A stretch of DNA of 18,233 nucleotides, taken from a virus. Taxonomy: Duplodnaviria; Heunggongvirae; Uroviricota; Caudoviricetes. Below are positions 7,048 to 18,233 of this stretch, one piece after another. The notes under the pieces were generated by a model that searched no databases, was not told the DNA's origin, and saw nothing but the letters and a program-made list of their open reading frames with translations. The first letter of the stretch is position 1; each line of letters starts with the position of its first letter. The DNA is taken from IMG/VR virus record IMGVR_UViG_2734482771_000002; one strand, 5' to 3'. Both the position numbers and the translations under genes were made by a program.

Positions 7048-10000
7048 ATGGGTAAAGGAAGCAGTAAGGGGCATACTCCGCGCGAAGCGAAGGACAACCT
7101 GAAGTCCACGCAGTTGCTGAGTGTGATCGATGCCATCAGCGAAGGGCCGATTGAAGGTCCGGTGGATGGCTTAAAAAGCGTGCTGCTGAACAGTACGCCG
7201 GTGCTGGACAGTGAGGGGAATACCATTATCTCCGGCGTCACGGTGGTGTTCCGGGCCGGTGAGCAGGAGCAGACTCCGCCGGAGGGATTTGAATCCTCCA
7301 GCTCCGAGACAGTGTTGGGTACGGAAGTGAAATACGACACGCCGATCACCCGCGCCATCACGTCGGCAAACATCGACCGACTGCGCTTTACCTTCGGTGT
7401 GCAGGCACTGGTGGAAACCACCTCAAAGGGGGACCGGAATCCGTCGGAAGTTCGCCTGCTGGTTCAGATACAGCGTAATGGTGGCTGGGTGACGGAAAAA
7501 GACATCACCATTAAGGGCAAAACCACCTCGCAGTATCTGGCCTCGGTGGTGGTGGATAACCTGCCGCCGCGCCCGTTTAATATCCGGATGCGCAGAATGA
7601 CGCCGGACAGCACCACAGACCAGCTGCAGAACAAAACGCTCTGGTCGTCATACACCGAAATCATCGATGTGAAACAGTGCTACCCGAACACGGCACTGGT
7701 CGGCGTACAGGTGGATTCGGAGCAGTTCGGCAGCCAGCAGGTGAGCCGTAATTATCATCTGCGCGGGCGTATTCTGCAGGTGCCGTCGAATTATAACCCG
7801 CAGACGCGGCAATACAGCGGTATCTGGGACGGAACGTTTAAACCGGCATACAGCAACAACATGGCCTGGTGTCTGTGGGATATGCTGACCCACCCGCGCT
7901 ACGGCATGGGGAAACGTCTTGGTGCGGCAGATGTGGATAAATGGGCGCTGTATGTCATCGGCCAGTACTGCGACCAGTCGGTGCCGGACGGCTTTGGCAG
8001 CACGGAGCCGCGCATCACCTGTAATGCCTGGCTGACCACACAGCGCAAGGCGTGGGATGTGCTCAGTGATTTCTGCTCGGCGATGCGCTGTATGCCGGTA
8101 TGGAACGGGCAGACGCTGACGTTCGTGCAGGACCGACCGTCGGATAAGGTGTGGACCTATAACCGCAGTAATGTGGTGATGCCGGATGATGGCGCGCCGT
8201 TCCGCTACAGCTTCAGCGCCCTGAAGGACCGCCATAATGCCGTTGAGGTGAACTGGATTGACCCGGATAACGGCTGGGAGACGGCGACAGAGCTTGTGGA
8301 GGACACGCAGGCCATTGCCCGTTACGGTCGTAATGTCACGAAGATGGATGCCTTTGGCTGTACCAGCCGGGGGCAGGCACACCGAGCCGGGCTGTGGCTG
8401 ATTAAAACGGAGCTGCTGGAAACGCAGACCGTGGATTTCAGCGTCGGCGCAGAAGGGCTTCGCCATGTACCGGGCGATGTTATTGAAATCTGTGATGATG
8501 ACTATGCCGGTATCAGCACCGGTGGTCGTGTGCTGGCGGTGAACAGCCTGACCCGGACGCTGACGCTTGACCGTGAAATCACGCTGCCATCCTCCGGTAC
8601 CACGCTGATAAGCCTGGTTGACGGAAGTGGCAATCCGGTCAGCGTGGAGGTTCAGTCCGTCACCGACGGCGTGAAGGTGAAAGTGAGCCGTGTTCCTGAC
8701 GGTGTTGCTGAATACAGCGTATGGGGGCTGAAGCTGCCGAGGCTGCGCCAGCGACTGTTCCGCTGCGTGAGTATCCGTGAGAACGACGACGGCACGTATG
8801 CCATCACCGCCGTGCAGCATGTGCCGGAAAAAGAGGTCATCGTGGATAACGGGGCGCACTTTGACGGCGAACAGAGTGGCACGGTGAACGGTGTCACGCC
8901 GCCAGCGGTGCAGCACCTGACCGCAGAAGTCACTGCAGACAGCGGGGAATACCAGGTGCTGGCCCGCTGGGACACGCCGAAGGTGGTGAAGGGCGTGAGC
9001 TTCCTGCTTCGCCTGACCGTGGCAGCGGATGACGGCAGTGAGCGGCTGGTCAGCACGGCCCGGACGACGGAAACCACTTACCGCTTCACACAACTGGCTC
9101 TGGGGAACTACAGGCTGACAGTCCGGGCAGTAAATGCGTGGGGGCAGCAGGGCGATCCGGCGTCGGTATCGTTCCGGATTGCCGCACCGGCAGCGCCGTC
9201 GCGGATTGAGCTGACGCCGGGCTATTTTCAGATAACCGCCACGCCGCATCTTGCGGTTTATGATCCGACGGTACAGTTTGAGTTCTGGTTCTCGGAAAAG
9301 CGGATTGCGGATATCAGGCAGGTTGAAACCACAGCACGCTATCTTGGCACGGCGCTGTACTGGATAGCCGCCAGTATCAATATCAGGCCGGGCCATAATT
9401 ATTATTTTTACGTTCGCAGTGTGAACACCGTTGGCAAATCGGCATTCGTGGAGGCTGTTGGTCAGCCGAGTGATGACGCATCCGGCTATCTGGATTTTTT
9501 CAAAGGCGAGATAGGGAAAACCCATCTGGCTCAGGAGCTGTGGACGCAGATTGATAACGGTCAGCTTGCGCCTGACCTGGCTGAAATCAGGACATCCATT
9601 ACGGATGTCAGCAATGAAATCACACAGACCGTCAATAAGAAACTGGAAGACCAGAGTGCAGCGATCCAGCAGATACAGAAGGTTCAGGTTGATACAAATA
9701 ATAATCTGAACAGCATGTGGGCTGTGAAGCTGCAGCAGATGCAGGACGGACGCCTTTATATTGCGGGTATCGGTGCCGGTATTGAGAACACCCCCGACGG
9801 CATGCAGAGTCAGGTGCTGCTGGCGGCAGACAGGATTGCGATGATTAATCCTGCAAATGGCAACACAAAACCGATGTTTGTTGGTCAGGGTGATCAGATA
9901 TTCATGAATGAAGTGTTCCTGAAATATCTGACGGCTCCCACCATTACCAGCGGCGGTAATCCTCCTGCATTTTCCCTGACACCGGACGGAAAGCTGACCG

Positions 10001-10545
10001 CTAAAAATGCGGATATCAGTGGCAGTGTGAATGCGAACGCCGGGACGCTCAACAATGTCACGGTAAATGAAAACTGTACAATTAAGGGCATGCTGGAGGC
10101 GACCCAGGTCAGAGGGGATTTCGTTAAAGCTGTATCAAAAGCCTTCCCGAAAAAAGTCGGTACGTGGGGTAACACGGAAACACCAAACGGTACGGTTACA
10201 GTCACCATCAGCGATGATCATAACTTTGACCGCCAGATTATTATTCCGCCCATTATTTTTAACGGTATAGCGTATGACGATCCGGGGAGCGGAAATAACC
10301 CGGGAGGCACGCGATACACGGGTTATGGTTTTGAAGTTCGCAAAAACGGCGTATTAATCGCATCCAGAGAAACTAAAGGGGCCATTCCCGGTAGTTACAG
10401 TGCAGTTATTGATATGCCTAGTGGTGGTGGTAGCGTCACTCTGGAGTTTAAGATTTTCCAGAAAGGCAATCAGGGGGCAGGCAATATCACCGACTGTACG
10501 GTGATTGTGACCAAAAAAGCGGCTTCCGGCATCAGTATTCGTTGA
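7048..10545 (+). CDS. J: Central tail fibre / host specificity protein J (tip attachment protein)
   Basis: 1165-aa [57 protein letters not shown]..., lambda gpJ-like over most of its length (fibronectin III-like repeats); the last few hundred residues appear divergent from lambda J as I recall it. Confidence 0.92.
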
Positions 10546-10614: not shown

Positions 10615-11214
10615 ATGCGTAAACTTTATGCCGCCATTTTGTCCGCAGCCATTTGTCTGGCCGTATCCGGTGCGCCTGCATGGGCATCTGAACATCAGTC
10701 CACGCTGAGCGCGGGGTATCTTCATGCCTCGACGAACGTTCCCGGCAGCGATGATCTTAACGGGATTAACGTGAAATACCGTTATGAGTTTACGGACACA
10801 CTGGGGCTGGTGACGTCATTCAGCTATGCAGGAGACAAGAATCGCCAGCTTACCCGTTACAGCGATACCCGCTGGCATGAAGATTCCGTGCGTAACCGCT
10901 GGTTCAGCGTGATGGTGGGGCCGTCTGTGCGCGTGAATGAATGGTTCAGCGCGTATGCGATGGCGGGTATGGCTTACAGCCGTGTGTCGACTTTCTCCGG
11001 GGATTATCTCCGCGTAACTGACAACAAGGGGAAAACGCACGACGTGCTGACCGGAAGTGATGACGGTCGCCACAGCAACACGTCTCTGGCGTGGGGAGCT
11101 GGCGTGCAGTTTAACCCGACCGAATCCGTGGCCATTGATATTGCTTATGAAGGCTCCGGCAGTGGCGACTGGCGCACTGACGGTTTCATCGTGGGTGTCG
11201 GTTATAAGTTCTGA
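10615..11214 (+). CDS. lom: Lom-family outer membrane protein (Ail/Lom/OmpX/PagC beta-barrel family)
   Basis: 199-aa ORF with a signal peptide ([24 protein letters not shown]) and the Lom-type C-terminus ...[29 protein letters not shown]; RBS GAGAGG upstream; located between J and stf as in lambda. Confidence 0.85.
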
Positions 11215-11268: not shown

Positions 11269-11278
11269 TGGGGTGAAT

Positions 11279-14200
11279 ATGGCAGTAAAGATTTCAGGTG
11301 TACTGAAAGACGGCACAGGAAAACCGGTACAGAACTGCACAATCCAGCTGAAAGCAAAACGTAACAGCACCGCGGTGGTGGTGAACACGCTGGCCTCAGA
11401 AAATCCGGATGAAGCCGGGCGTTACAGCATGGACGTTGAGTACGGTCAGTACAGCGTTATTCTGTTGGTGGAAGGATTCCCGCCGTCACATGCCGGGACC
11501 ATCACCGTGTATGAAGATTCCCGACCCGGTACGCTGAATGATTTTCTCGGTGCCATGACGGAGGATGATGCCCGTCCGGAGGCTCTGCGCCGTTTTGAAC
11601 TGATGGTGGAAGAGGTGGCGCGTAACGCGTCCGCGGTGGCACAGAACACGGCAGCCGCGAAGAAGTCAGCCGGCGATGCCGGCACATCTGCCCGTGAGGC
11701 GGCAACCCATGCGACTGATGCTGCAGGCTCAGCACGCGCAGCCAGCACGTCAGCCGGACAGGCCGCTTCGTCGGCTCAGTCAGCGTCTTCCAGCGCAGGA
11801 ACGGCATCAACAAAGGCCACTGAAGCGGAAAAAAGTGCTGCCGCTGCAGAGTCCTCAAAAAGCGCGGCAGCTACCAGTGCCAGTGCCGCGAAAACGTCAG
11901 AAACGAATGCTGCAGCGTCACAACAATCAGCAGCCACTTCTGCATCCACCGCGACTACGAAAGCGTCAGAAGCTGCCACCTCAGCCCGGGATGCGTCGGC
12001 TTCAAAAGAGGCGGCAAAATCATCAGAAACGAACGCATCCTCGAGCGCCAGTAGCGCAGCTTCCTCGGCAACGGCGGCAGCAAATTCCGCGAAGGCGGCA
12101 AAAACGTCCGAGACGAACGCCAGGTCTTCTGAGACGGCAGCGGGACAGAGCGCCTCAGCTGCGGCAGGCTCAAAAACAGCGGCTGCGTCGTCTGCCAGTG
12201 CCGCGTCAACAAGTGCCGGGCAGGCCTCAGCCAGTGCCATCGCCGCCGGAAAATCGGCAGAAAGCGCCGCATCATCCGCTTCAACAGCCACAACGAAGGC
12301 TGGCGAAGCCACTGAACAGGCCAGCGCAGCAGCGAGGTCAGCTTCCGCAGCGAAGACATCCGAAACGAACGCGAAAGCGTCGGAAACCAGCGCAGAATCC
12401 TCAAAAACGGCTGCCGCATCGTCCGCCAGTTCGGCGGCGTCATCGGCCTCATCGGCGTCTGCTTCAAAAGATGAGGCGACCAGACAAGCGTCAGCAGCGA
12501 AGGGCAGCGCCACGACGGCATCCACGAAGGCAACAGAGGCTGCTGGCAGTGCGACGGCGGCAGCACAGAGCAAGAGTACGGCAGAATCCGCAGCAACGCG
12601 CGCCGAGACAGCAGCAAAACGGGCAGAGGATATTGCATCCGCTGTGGCGCTTGAGGATGCGAGCACGACGAAAAAGGGGATAGTACAGCTCAGTAGTGCG
12701 ACTAACAGCACTTCCGAGTCACTGGCGGCAACACCAAAAGCCGTTAAGGCCGCGTATGACCTGGCTAACGGGAAATACACCGCACAGGATGCAACGACAG
12801 CACAGAAAGGGATAATCCAGCTAAGCAGCGCGACCAACAGCACGTCTGAAACGCTTGCCGCGACACCAAAGGCAGTAAAAACAGCCTATGACAATGCTGA
12901 GAAACGTCTGCAGAAAGATCAGAACGGTGCGGATATCCCTGGCAAAGACACCTTTACGAAAAATATTGGTGCCTGCCGTGCCTTTGGTGGGTCAGTAAGC
13001 ACAATAACAGGAAACTGGACGACTGCACAGTTTATCGAGTGGCTGGATTCTCAGGGAGCATTTAACCATCCCTACTGGATGTGCAAGGGGTCCTGGTCTT
13101 ATGGCAATAATAAAATCATTACTGATACTGACTGCGGTAATATTCATCTCGCCGGAGCTGTCATTGAAGTAATGGGGATAAAGTCAGCGATGACGATCCG
13201 CATTACCACACCGACCACCTCCACTGGTGGTGGAACAACTAACGCCCAGTTTACCTATATTAATCACGGAACAGATTATTCACCTGGCTGGCGAAGGGAC
13301 TATAACTCCAGAAATAAGCCAACGGCATCAGAGATCGGGGCGTTACCGTCAGGTGGAACAGCAGTATCATCAGTTAATCTGTCTTCAAAAGGTCGGGTAA
13401 CCGCGCTGACAGACAATACGCAGGGGGCAACAGGTCTTGAGTTATACGAGGTGTATAACAACGGATATCCAACAGCGTATGGAAATATCATTCACCTGAA
13501 AGGGATGACAGCCGTTGGCGAAGGTGAGTTACTCATCGGCTGGAGTGGTACAAGCGGTGCTCATGCTCCGGCATTTATTCGTTCACGACGGGATACGACC
13601 GACGCAAACTGGTCGCCGTGGGCGCAGCTTTACACCTCGGCTCATCCTCCTGCAGAGTTTTATCCAGTCGGTGCACCAATCCCGTGGCCATCAGATACCG
13701 TTCCGTCTGGCTATGCCCTGATGCAGGGGCAGACTTTTGACAAATCTGCATACCCGAAACTTGCAGCGGCTTATCCGTCAGGCGTGATCCCTGATATGCG
13801 TGGCTGGACGATTAAGGGCAAACCTGCCAGTGGTCGGGCCGTATTGTCTCAGGAACAGGACGGCATTAAATCGCATACCCACAGCGCCAGCGCATCCAGT
13901 ACGGATTTGGGGACGAAAACCACATCGTCGTTTGATTACGGCACTAAATCCACGAATAACACTGGTGCGCATACCCATAGTTTAAGTGGCAGCACGAATG
14001 CAGCTGGTAATCACAGCCATAGAGATGGCCGTCGATTTAACCCCAGTGTTTTTAAAGATACTTATCAATATGGTTATACAAGCTCAGGTCAAAATACCTG
14101 GGGTGTACAAGGCTCAGTAGGTATGTCTACGGGGTGGTTAGCTAATACCAGTACAGATGGTAATCATAGCCACTCACTGTCCGGCACAGCAGCATCTGCA

Positions 14201-14350
14201 GGTGCACACGCGCATACTGTCGGTATTGGTGCTCATACGCACTCCGTTGCGATTGGTTCACATGGACACACCATCACCGTTAACGCTGCTGGTAACGCGG
14301 AAAACACCGTCAAAAACATCGCATTTAACTATATTGTGAGGCTTGCATAA
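11279..14350 (+). CDS. stf: Side tail fibre protein Stf
   Basis: ORF beginning [30 protein letters not shown]... (ATG 11279; the supplied track starts at the in-frame GTG 11273). It has a long Ala/Ser/Thr-rich low-complexity shaft, duplicated KGI(V/I)[11 protein letters not shown](S/T)LAATPKAVK motifs, and a His-rich C-terminus ([43 protein letters not shown]) of the lambda Stf / T4 gp37 type. Its stop overlaps the tfa start (TAATG). Confidence 0.85.
12674..12892 (+). repeat. Duplicated 29-codon motif inside stf (copies 12674-12760 and 12806-12892, separated by 45 nt)
   Basis: Both copies encode KGI(V/I)[11 protein letters not shown](S/T)LAATPKAVK(A/T)AYD; the nucleotide sequences differ at many synonymous positions while the peptides are nearly identical. 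Confidence 0.8.
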
Positions 14351-14925
14351 TGGCATTCAGAATGAGTGAACAACCACGGACCATAAAAATTTATAATCTG
14401 CTGGCCGGAACTAATGAATTTATTGGTGAAGGTGATGCATATATTCCGCCTCATACAGGTCTGCCAGCAAACAGTACCGATATTGCACCGCCAGATATTC
14501 CGGCTGGCTTCGTGGCTGTTTTCAACAGTGATGAGTCATCGTGGCATCTCGTTGAAGATCATCGGGGTAAAACGGTTTATGACGTGGCTTCCGGCGACGC
14601 GTTATTTATTTCTGAACTCGGTCCGTTACCGGAAAATGTTACCTGGTTATCGCCGGAAGGGGAGTTTCAGAAGTGGAACGGCACAGCCTGGGTGAAGGAT
14701 ACGGAAGCAGAAAAACTGTTCCGGATCCGGGAGGCGGAAGAAACAAAAAACAACCTGATGCAGGTAGCCAGTGAGCATATTGCGCCGCTTCAGGATGCTG
14801 CAGATCTGGAAATTGCAACGGAGGAAGAAATCTCGTTGCTGGAAGCATGGAAAAAGTATCGGGTATTGCTGAACCGTGTTGATACGTCAACTGCACAGGA
14901 TATTGAATGGCCAGCACTGCCGTAG
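14350..14925 (+). CDS. tfa: Tail fibre assembly protein Tfa
   Basis: 191-aa [82 protein letters not shown]... matching lambda Tfa; immediately follows stf. Confidence 0.88.
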
Positions 14926-15022: not shown

Positions 15023-15613
15023 TTATATGTCAGGTGTCTGAAGTTTTGCTTTGGCTCTTAAAATGGTTTGCCGCGAGGTTTTGAATTCCCGGGCAATGGC
15101 ACTTATACTTACACCTGACTTAATTCGTTCGAATACCACCTGTTTCTGTTCTTCATTTAACACAGGTGGTCGACCAAAACGTTTCCCTGCGCCGCGGGCT
15201 CTTACTATCCCGGAATGAGTGCGTTCAAGTAAAAGGTCTCGTTCAAATTCAGCGACTGCTGAAATTACTTGCATCATCATTTTTCCTGTTGGACTGGTCA
15301 GGTCAATGCCACCCAATGCTAAGCAATGCACTCTGATACCTGTTTCGGTCAGTTGTTCCACTGTTTTCCTGATATCCATTGCATTACAACCAAGGCGATC
15401 CAGTTTTGTCACAATCAATTGATCACCACATTTCAGGCGAGCAAGCAACCGGTTAAAACCAGGACGCTCACTGGTTGCTGCTGAGCCGCTAATGTGTTCT
15501 TCGATTATTTGCTGAGGTTTGATTTTAAAACCTGCACTTTCGATTTCCCGGCGTTGATTTTCGGTGGTCTGATCCAGCGTTGATATCCGACAGTAAGCAA
15601 AAATTCGAGACAT
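15023..15613 (-). CDS. pin: Serine recombinase, Pin/Gin/Hin-family DNA invertase
   Basis: 196-aa [32 protein letters not shown]... with the resolvase/invertase N-terminal catalytic-serine motif (YCRISTLDQ) and a C-terminal HTH ([22 protein letters not shown]). Convergent with tfa, as in the Rac/Qin/e14 arrangement. Confidence 0.88.
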
Positions 15614-15929
15614 AGTGAGACTCTATACGAAATTGGTGTTCATATCATAATGCATCTCAGAAAATAATTATGATTATTTTTGTGCATATTTGTATGTACA
15701 CGTTCGAAAATAAACGAATGCGTATGCAACCCCGTAATTTTGGTGAGACCCAAAATCGATTTTGTGAAAAATGGCTTTAACTCGGTTTGTTTTTCGAGTT
15801 CCGGGCGGACTCAAGGAAGAAGAATAGTGTTGCGTGTTATTTTAACCAGATTTCAAGTTGTTTGGTCGTGGAAAAGTGGAGCAAAATGTTGTTAAAGTGG
15901 AAAAATGATAAAAAAGTAAGTTTATTATA

Positions 15930-16163
15930 TTACATTTTACCATTTAAATTTTGGTTGTCTTTAAGAACTGATATCGCTGTTTGTAATAATTCTTTGTTAT
16001 CCAGCCATGATTTTTTCTTTATGTTTCCTTCAATGTAATCAAGCAATGTTCTGGTATTGATAGGTCTTCCCTGTTTTGCTACTTCCACTACAGCATCCCC
16101 TAGGATAATTCTTACTTCAGGAAGCTGCGCAGGGAACCACTTTAGGGTGTCTTTTGATTTCAT
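15930..16163 (-). CDS. ydfK: Small YdfK/YnaE-like protein (DUF1398-type, cold-shock-associated prophage gene)
   Basis: Minus-strand ORF; the supplied 88-aa version (to 16196) starts MKINNILRNIFMKSKDTLKW..., while the internal Met gives a 77-aa product MKSKDTLKWFPAQLPEVRIILGDAVVEVAKQGRPINTRTLLDYIEGNIKKKSWLDNKELLQTAISVLKDNQNLNGKM. The call rests mainly on synteny (pin-ydfK-ydfJ as in the K-12 Qin end) and size; the start codon is uncertain. Confidence 0.6.
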   Translation of the reverse strand: MKSKDTLKWFPAQLPEVRIILGDAVVEVAKQGRPINTRTLLDYIEGNIKKKSWLDNKELLQTAISVLKDNQNLNGKM

Positions 16164-16667
16164 GAAGATATTCCTTAAAATATTATTGATTTTCATTGCG
16201 ATATTGTATGTCTGATTCAGGATATGTTGACTTATACATCGGTTTTGTCTGGGTTATTGGATATGCCAATCCCTAATTTTATTAGGGCATGACTAAAAAT
16301 GCTGAATATGATAAGGAGAGATGTGATTATCAGTATGCTGTTCATATAGCCTCGAATTAGTAATGTGTTATATATGATATAGTTGACAATTTTTATCTTG
16401 GGTGTTCTTAAAGTTCGTAGATAAACATTGTCGTTTCAGGTATACAGGAATGCTAACAGGTGGCAGCAAAAATCAGGCGGTTTATGGCGCAAGCTGAAGC
16501 GGCAACTGTAAACTATCTTATGCAGAGACTCTACACGGATTGGGTTTAAAAGTATACATAGATAACAGTTTTTATCTGAAAAAGAAAAATATCAAGGTGA
16601 TATAGCCTATATGCCTTTGATGCGGAGGAATGAATGTGATGGGAGTGATGTATCTGAATAGTTGAAA

Positions 16668-16705
16668 AACCGCAGACACGCCTTATGCAAGAACGTGCTG
16701 CGGTT
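16668..16705 (-). terminator. Strong hairpin, terminator-like when read on the minus strand
   Basis: AACCGCAG-A-CACG [13-nt loop] CGTG-CTGCGGTT (12 bp of stem with one bulge). On the minus strand the hairpin runs directly into a TTTTT tract (complement of the A-run at 16665-16669); on the plus strand no immediate T-run follows. Confidence 0.4.
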
Positions 16706-16949
16706 GGCTGGTAAATTTTTCGATAGTGTGAGTATTGAATGATTTCCAGCCGTTCTTGATTTTACGCATAAATCCATGAAAAAACTACTTATCTGTTGGG
16801 GAGTTTTTTTTGGGGCATATATGGGACAGAAATAGGCCCCAGATAGACACTGAGATCGAACTTAGGATGCTTTTTAAAAAATGCAACTATCTGAAAAAAC
16901 CTAGAAAACGCCAAGGAAACCACAGGATGGGAAAAAACACCTGTGAATT

Positions 16950-18233
16950 ATGGATTTCCAGTTATATTCGCTCGGCGCAGCGTTAGTGTTTCATGAAATA
17001 TTTTTTCCTGAATCATCAACGGCAATGGCGTTAATTCTGGCAATGGGAACCTATGGTGCAGGTTATGTGGCGCGTATTGTCGGAGCATTTATTTTCGGCA
17101 AAATGGGCGACAGAATAGGGCGTAAAAAAGTGCTCTTTATTACCATCACCATGATGGGGATCTGTACCACCTTAATTGGAGTGTTACCGACCTATGCACA
17201 GATTGGTGTTTTTGCACCCATCTTGCTGGTGACGCTGCGTATTATTCAGGGATTGGGTGCAGGTGCGGAAATTTCCGGTGCCGGTACGATGCTGGCGGAA
17301 TATGCGCCAAAAGGTAAGCGCGGAATTATCTCCTCATTTGTGGCTATGGGAACTAACTGCGGAACCTTAAGCGCAACGGCAATCTGGGCCTTTATGTTCT
17401 TCATTCTCAGTAAAGAGGAACTGCTGGCGTGGGGATGGCGTATACCGTTCCTGGCGAGCGTTGTCGTGATGGTCTTTGCTATCTGGTTGCGTATGAATCT
17501 GAAAGAAAGCCCGGTCTTTGAGAAGGTTAACGACAGCAACCAACCGACAGCAAAACCTGCACCTGCTGGTAGCATGTTCCAGAGCAAATCCTTCTGGCTG
17601 GCAACAGGGCTGCGTTTTGGTCAGGCGGGTAACTCCGGTTTAATTCAGACTTTCCTTGCAGGCTATTTAGTACAGACGTTATTGTTTAACAAAGCAATTC
17701 CAACAGATGCATTGATGATCAGTTCGATTCTCGGCTTTATGACCATTCCGTTCCTTGGTTGGTTATCCGATAAAATTGGTCGCCGGATCCCGTATATTAT
17801 TATGAATACCTCTGCGATTGTGCTGGCGTGGCCAATGCTTTCTATCATCGTAGATAAAAGCTATGCCCCGAGCACCATTATGGTTGCACTGATTGTGATT
17901 CATAACTGTGCGGTGCTGGGATTATTTGCTCTGGAAAACATTACCATGGCAGAAATGTTCGGCTGTAAAAACCGCTTTACCCGGATGGCTATTTCAAAAG
18001 AAATTGGTGGTCTTATCGCTTCCGGTTTTGGTCCTATCCTGGCGGGTATTTTCTGCACCATGACGGAATCCTGGTATCCGATCGCCATTATGATCATGGC
18101 ATATTCAGTAATTGGTTTAATCTCTGCGCTGAAAATGCCAGAGGTGAAAGACCGTGATTTAAGTGCGCTGGAAGACGCTGCGGAAGATCAACCGCGTGTT
18201 GTAAGAGCTGCGCAACCTTCCAGAAGTCTGTAA
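16950..18233 (+). CDS. ydfJ: MFS transporter of the metabolite:H+ symporter type (YdfJ-like), apparently 5'-truncated
   Basis: 427-aa ORF MDFQLYSLGAALVFHEIFFPESSTAMALILAMGTYGAGYVARIVGAFIFGKMGDRIGRKKVLFITITM... with many hydrophobic helices. Its first residues align to the conserved (E)WYDF.LYG...FFP box that in ProP/ShiA-type transporters sits about 25-35 residues from the N-terminus, so the true N-terminus appears missing. In-frame stop at 16944-16946 just upstream; stop at 18231-18233. Confidence 0.8.
   Translation: MDFQLYSLGAALVFHEIFFPESSTAMALILAMGTYGAGYVARIVGAFIFGKMGDRIGRKKVLFITITMMGICTTLIGVLPTYAQIGVFAPILLVTLRIIQGLGAGAEISGAGTMLAEYAPKGKRGIISSFVAMGTNCGTLSATAIWAFMFFILSKEELLAWGWRIPFLASVVVMVFAIWLRMNLKESPVFEKVNDSNQPTAKPAPAGSMFQSKSFWLATGLRFGQAGNSGLIQTFLAGYLVQTLLFNKAIPTDALMISSILGFMTIPFLGWLSDKIGRRIPYIIMNTSAIVLAWPMLSIIVDKSYAPSTIMVALIVIHNCAVLGLFALENITMAEMFGCKNRFTRMAISKEIGGLIASGFGPILAGIFCTMTESWYPIAIMIMAYSVIGLISALKMPEVKDRDLSALEDAAEDQPRVVRAAQPSRSL

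Follow-up and report, generated by a model that had tools for sequence, protein, structure and literature searches.

Our analysis of gene J leads to an account that, taken as a whole, we consider probable: the host specificity protein of this lambdoid prophage joins a lambda-type tail-tip hub to two exchangeable cassettes, the distal one supplying a receptor-binding tip of the phage 434 class, with OmpC as the most probable receptor. The window, by which we mean the entire stretch of 18,233 nt that was analysed, is an E. coli-type prophage, and its features are listed in Table 1. An earlier note made from the letters of the sequence had proposed that the C-terminal receptor-binding portion of J was replaced relative to lambda. 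The receptor domain is indeed a different module from that of lambda, gained by mosaic exchange, and over the last 155 residues it is 97.4% identical to that of 434 (151/155 residues; 97.6% at the nucleotide level). The result picks out the determinant of host range in a lambdoid prophage and allows its receptor to be predicted from sequence as OmpC and not LamB. In naming the segments of J we followed the cryo-EM study of lambda gpJ, which distinguishes the hub, FNIII-1/2, the alpha-helical shaft, the central straight fibre and the receptor-binding domain (PMC11101478).

Table 1. Gene J, its segments and the neighbouring genes, in window coordinates.
Feature	Position	Strand	Basis
Gene J (tail tip / central tail fibre, host specificity protein)	7048..10545	+	Intact ORF, 1165 aa, 3498 nt
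Lambda-like part of J, aa 1-818 (hub and FNIII/Ig domains)	7048..9501	+	Identity to lambda and 434
Variable block 1, alpha-helical shaft and upper central straight fibre, aa ~819-951	9502..9900	+	Nucleotide alignment, BLASTP gaps
Conserved lower central straight fibre, aa ~962-1005	9930..10060	+	Nucleotide identity, invariant columns
Variable block 2, receptor-binding domain, aa 1011-1165, phage 434 class (OmpC-type by sequence class)	10078..10545	+	Identity to 434 J, PF12421
lom (Ail/Lom outer-membrane protein)	10615..11214	+	PF06316, E=1e-119; position as in lambda and 434
stf (side tail fibre)	11273-14350	+	1025 aa; PF08400, PF03406, PF07484
tfa (tail fibre assembly)	14350-14925	+	PF02413
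Serine recombinase (Resolvase and HTH_7), 196 aa	15023-15613	-	Directly downstream of stf/tfa

A Pfam search located seven gpJ domains on J, with PF24801, PF13550, PF24421, PF24489, PF09327 and PF12421 scoring above the curated cut-offs. The tail-tip fibre domain PF09327 covers aa 872-1000 and the receptor-binding domain PF12421 covers aa 1029-1164 (E=7e-25). The protein has the architecture of the gpJ family, consisting of FNIII-A, the Phage-tail_3 hub, two Ig/FNIII domains, the tail-tip fibre and the C-terminal receptor-binding domain, and BLASTP gave an overall amino acid identity to lambda gpJ of 82%. The surrounding ORFs run in the order H-M-L-K-I-J-lom-stf-tfa, in agreement with the annotation of this cluster in lambda, 434 and ev243, and the identities of lom, stf and tfa are backed by Pfam.

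The J gene was compared with its relatives in a five-way nucleotide alignment in which identity was measured in sliding windows. The first 818 residues are 97% identical to lambda gpJ (793/818) and share 796/818 residues with 434 J, and the corresponding DNA is 93-97% identical to lambda. Similarity to lambda breaks at the motif FFKG(E/K)I, at aa ~819 (nt ~9500). These values bear out the proposal that the first ~800 residues are lambda-like and place the start of divergence no more than ~20 nt from position 9480, where it had been put from the letters. The earlier description of all distal J as unlike lambda holds for the shaft and receptor blocks but fails for one continuous region, since nucleotide identity to lambda returns to ~96% at ~9930-10060. 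In protein terms, lambda shares 48/127 residues with the shaft and upper prism, 57/65 (88%) with the lower prism and 58/161 aligned residues (36%) with the receptor domain.

Base composition also differs between the two parts of the gene. Codons 1-818 have a GC content of 58.7% and a GC3 of 70.8%, and from codon 819 onwards the values are 49.1% and 53.2%; across both cassettes GC3 drops from 71% to ~50%, and block 2 has a GC content of 48.2%. The same comparison in lambda J yielded a smaller fall, from 58.3 to 54.1% for GC and from 70.0 to 64.1% for GC3. The impression that the distal DNA is richer in AT than the upstream part was therefore correct, and lambda J itself falls less.

Block 1 is only 19-66% identical at the nucleotide level to lambda and to 434, yet it is 96-99% identical to ev243 and Stx2a_WGPS6, and it matches Kati, mEp332, cdtI and many Stx phages at the same level (96-99%). 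The block includes 28 extra shaft residues (84 nt; ~aa 836-866, nt ~9553-9645), which appear in BLASTP as gaps in both lambda and 434. The shaft displays a hydrophobic heptad pattern, and 28 residues correspond to four heptads. An AF2 monomer model of aa 819-1165 placed helices at aa 827-836 and 841-888; for this region the model speaks to helix propensity only, because the trimeric shaft and prism cannot be modelled reliably as a monomer (pLDDT <50) and confidence is usable in the receptor domain alone.

Shaft length varies across relatives in our alignment (A1), which contains the lambda form, the form with 28 additional residues seen here, and a form with ~100 additional residues in two relatives (P0046 and P0059). 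The shafts of the latter two carry ~73 further residues, also heptad-like, near the equivalent of window positions 9550-9650. In another relative, P0058, a segment of the shaft and prism is duplicated internally.

The two variable blocks are separated by a conserved junction, for which nucleotide identity is ~96% to lambda and 90-94% to 434, ev243 and WGPS6, so that it is conserved in all five aligned genes. A run of invariant columns is found at the same place across 23 diverse J C-termini. The junction is likely a recombination site.

Block 2 differs from the 434 receptor domain by four substitutions (N1047D, I1136V, Q1138H and G1143R) and is 100% identical at the amino acid level in Stx2a_WGPS6 and ASU11. 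Windowed nucleotide identity to lambda is 40-58% (~50%) across the block. The last 150 residues are thus clearly not near-identical to lambda, and the domain, with the 36% amino acid identity given above, is distinct from the LamB-binding domain of lambda gpJ (residues ~983-1132). The AF2 model contains a beta-sandwich at aa ~1025-1165 with pLDDT values of 70-92, and a Foldseek search with the C-terminus model returned 9wca, 8xck, 8xcj and 9wcb as top matches (E 8e-21 to 4e-13; target-normalised TM of 0.65 to 9wcb). These entries, the A8 chimera (9wca, 9wcb) and lambda (8xck, 8xcj), are the best matches of the C-terminus in sequence as well as in fold. The C-terminal domain is therefore predicted to adopt the gpJ receptor-domain fold, an Ig-like beta-sandwich as in 8xcj and 9wcb.

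Positive selection is known to act on receptor-binding regions, and the J proteins of lambda and Phi21 collect host-range mutations in their C-termini. Distal J could accordingly have diverged in a single lineage through a rapid accumulation of point mutations driven by diversifying selection, with no exchange of cassettes. We find this scarcely credible, and gradual divergence by point mutation is effectively refuted by the sliding-window identities, the block combinations and the bimodal receptor-domain classes. Over tens of nucleotides identity drops from 97% to 19-50%, the shaft differs in length by 84 nt, and GC3 shifts by ~20 points. Among 120 database relatives the two blocks are found in all combinations, that is, the long shaft with the 434 domain, the short shaft with the 434 domain, and the long shaft with other domain classes (~42%, including the A8 type); the shaft and receptor blocks assort independently among these relatives. 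Furthermore, both cassettes are 97-100% identical in Stx2a_WGPS6, whose N-terminal part reaches only 76% identity. When 243 phage records were compared by receptor-domain identity, 74 were at least 90% identical to J, 169 were below 60% and none fell between, indicating that receptor domains form discrete classes, with the present J in the class of at least 90%. Fels-1, the sole Salmonella record listed in this comparison, was 45% identical, and Salmonella domains therefore belong to other classes. The block combinations, the WGPS6 backbone, the abruptness of the breakpoints and the shift in GC3 together lead to the conclusion that J was assembled by cassette exchange and not by gradual divergence.

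As to the receptor, the most informative comparison is between lambda and 434, whose J genes share 96-98% of their nucleotides as far as the position equivalent to nt 9900, 92.5% over 9901-10060 and only 48.8% in the final ~485 nt. Since the two genes differ essentially only in these last ~485 nt, their difference in receptor maps there. Phage 434 and lambda h434 use OmpC, and replacement of lambda J by the 434 gene results in OmpC use (PMC11101478). Hantke 1978, as represented by its citations in PMC11101478 and bioRxiv 10.1101/2022.09.30.509847, likewise attributed the host range of 434 and lambda h434 to OmpC, and the h434 allele has been sequenced in lambda h434 imm21 (PMC9119081). Similarly, engineered C-terminal swaps of gpJ retarget lambda from LamB to OmpC (bioRxiv 10.1101/2022.09.30.509847), and structures have been solved for the A8 gpJ chimera on OmpC (9wcb) and for lambda gpJ on LamB (8xcj). 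Because the receptor domain studied here is of the 434 class, and 434 and h434 use OmpC, we consider OmpC rather than LamB its likely receptor on the basis of sequence class. This agrees with the earlier suggestion of a receptor other than LamB, which gains support from the membership of the domain in a class described in the literature as using OmpC.

A domain of the 434 class might nonetheless recognise a different porin, or particular OmpC alleles only, in which case OmpC of K-12 would be the wrong call. Receptor use by J proteins is labile: single mutations in J shift receptor use in Phi21, where one mutation is enough for OmpC to be used (PMC11336670), and gpJ variants tell OmpC alleles apart, with A8 and 1A2 gpJ differing in the alleles they accept and 1A2 accepting the EDL933 allele only (bioRxiv 10.1101/2022.09.30.509847). 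The J protein of Gifsy-1 binds OmpC, OmpX and BtuB, and the four substitutions relative to 434 could also matter in this respect. We judge a different specificity quite unlikely in view of the 97.4% identity to 434 across the domain, the discreteness of the 434 class, which lacks intermediates, and the phages with 99-100% identical domains (PhiR34_1, mEp332 and Ayreon) whose records give K-12 hosts for their propagation. A literature search for published receptor data on phages with near-identical J proteins (ev243, Kati, HannyBb, PhiR34_1, mEp332 and WGPS6) found none, and in PMC13190303 and PMC7553319 OmpC or 434 is mentioned or cited in passing, with no receptor data for these phages. The prophage might also be defective and J a relic, with a specificity that now serves no function and an ORF that is intact by chance or because decay is recent. 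The location of the prophage at the ydfJ (Qin-type) site fits such a history, as does the fact that the window holds the tail half of a prophage only, but the tail genes in the window are all intact long ORFs in lambda order, and J equals in length its counterparts in the plaque-forming phages ev243, Kati and mEp332. We regard a relic as unlikely.

Thus we favour a lambda-type hub carrying two exchanged cassettes, with OmpC as the probable receptor, and propose the following model. J would form the trimeric tail-tip or central fibre protein of a lambda-like siphophage that resides as a prophage beside ydfJ. The N-terminal 818 residues would build the lambda-type tail-tip hub and the FNIII domains, and the distal fibre would be composed of cassette 1, with the longer shaft and the upper beta-prism, and cassette 2, with the 434-class Ig-like receptor domain. 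Both cassettes were presumably acquired by homologous recombination in conserved flanks, with nt ~9930-10060 serving as one such flank. By analogy with the lambda gpJ-LamB and A8 gpJ-OmpC complexes, the bottom loops of the three receptor domains at the fibre tip may enter a trimeric porin, which is most probably OmpC and not LamB. From there the signal of binding would travel through the beta-prism and the helical shaft, allowing the tail tip to open and the DNA to be ejected.

Comparison with known J proteins places the present one close to several sequenced phages. The J of phage 434 and lambda h434 (OL657226, OM418627) has nearly the same receptor domain, ending in KAASGISIR, an N-terminal part of 818 aa that is 97% identical, and lom following J. 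It differs in its short lambda-type shaft, relative to which the J described here has the additional 28 residues, a divergent upper prism and the low nucleotide identity noted for block 1 (over 9500-9900). The J genes of ev243, Kati, PhiR34_1, mEp332, cdtI and Ayreon are collinear with ours over all 3498 nt at 95-96% nucleotide identity (96.2% over the full length for ev243) and combine the long shaft with the 434-class domain. They differ by scattered point changes, such as one receptor-domain residue in the case of ev243, and in the side tail fibre genes downstream. Since near-identical full-length J genes are present in sequenced phages, the exact combination of blocks is already in the databases. 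Lambda gpJ (NP_040600; 8xcj, 8xck, 8iyk) shares the domain architecture and the fold family, whereas its LamB-binding receptor domain is the 36% identical one described above and its shaft is 28 residues shorter and ~38% identical. Finally, the A8 gpJ chimera on EDL933 OmpC (9wca, 9wcb) and phi330 J, for which OmpC use is known by experiment, belong to the same Ig-like gpJ receptor-domain family. Their domains are of other classes (~42% amino acid identity), and what they support is the plausibility of OmpC use for the fold, not OmpC binding by this allele.

The arrangement of J is ordinary and has already been described; it is textbook lambdoid host-range mosaicism. The h434 allele has been part of lambda genetics for decades, and swaps of the gpJ C-terminus are used deliberately in engineering. 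What goes slightly beyond routine annotation is the prevalence of the modules and the recognition of the shaft as a separately assorting module of variable length. Of 5426 complete E. coli genomes, 2113 (39%) contain the 434-class domain and 3616 (67%) the long shaft. The lambda-type domain occurs in 98 of the same 5426 genomes (2%), in every case at an identity of at least 99%, and laboratory strains and DE3 derivatives head the match list. The 434-class form is hence ~20 times commoner than the lambda type in E. coli genomes, and J can be called replaced only if lambda is taken as the reference. The term is a matter of reference frame; it is the lambda form that is unusual. Its LamB-binding domain is a natural rarity, and the 434-class domain and the long shaft are the E. 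coli norm.

The lambda shaft flips and partly refolds, thereby relaying receptor binding to the opening of the tail. Because of this role, variants in shaft length could tune the reach of the fibre or the threshold of the trigger, and the shaft might be a second, independently exchanged functional cassette. We offer this tentatively, as a rather doubtful possibility. If it were true, the shaft would set host range or infection efficiency apart from the receptor domain, for instance by how far the fibre extends through the O-antigen or in comparison with the side fibres. We found no description of shaft-length polymorphism in the literature searched.

Stf and Tfa constitute a second host-range determinant of the same virion, independent of J. 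The stf ORF as listed starts with GTG, and its product is longer than the side tail fibre of Ur-lambda, which has 774 aa. In the Stf protein, Ala/Ser/Thr-rich low-complexity repeats span ~400 aa (aa ~120-520); the conserved N-terminal domain precedes them, and the distal fibre-repeat and collar domains follow.

Tail-fibre invertases of the Pin/Gin/Cin type sit immediately downstream of fibre genes, and here ~100 bp separate tfa from the serine recombinase. Around 15023-15613, a search for an invertible tail-fibre segment gave no convincing flanking inverted repeats and no alternative fibre cassette, and such a segment appears to be absent or to have been lost. The ~1.3 kb that follow the recombinase (15614-16949) are AT-rich and contain small ORFs only. 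Beyond them, the right end of the prophage adjoins ydfJ, an MFS transporter gene (16950-18233, + strand), at a site that in K-12 is occupied by the defective Qin prophage.
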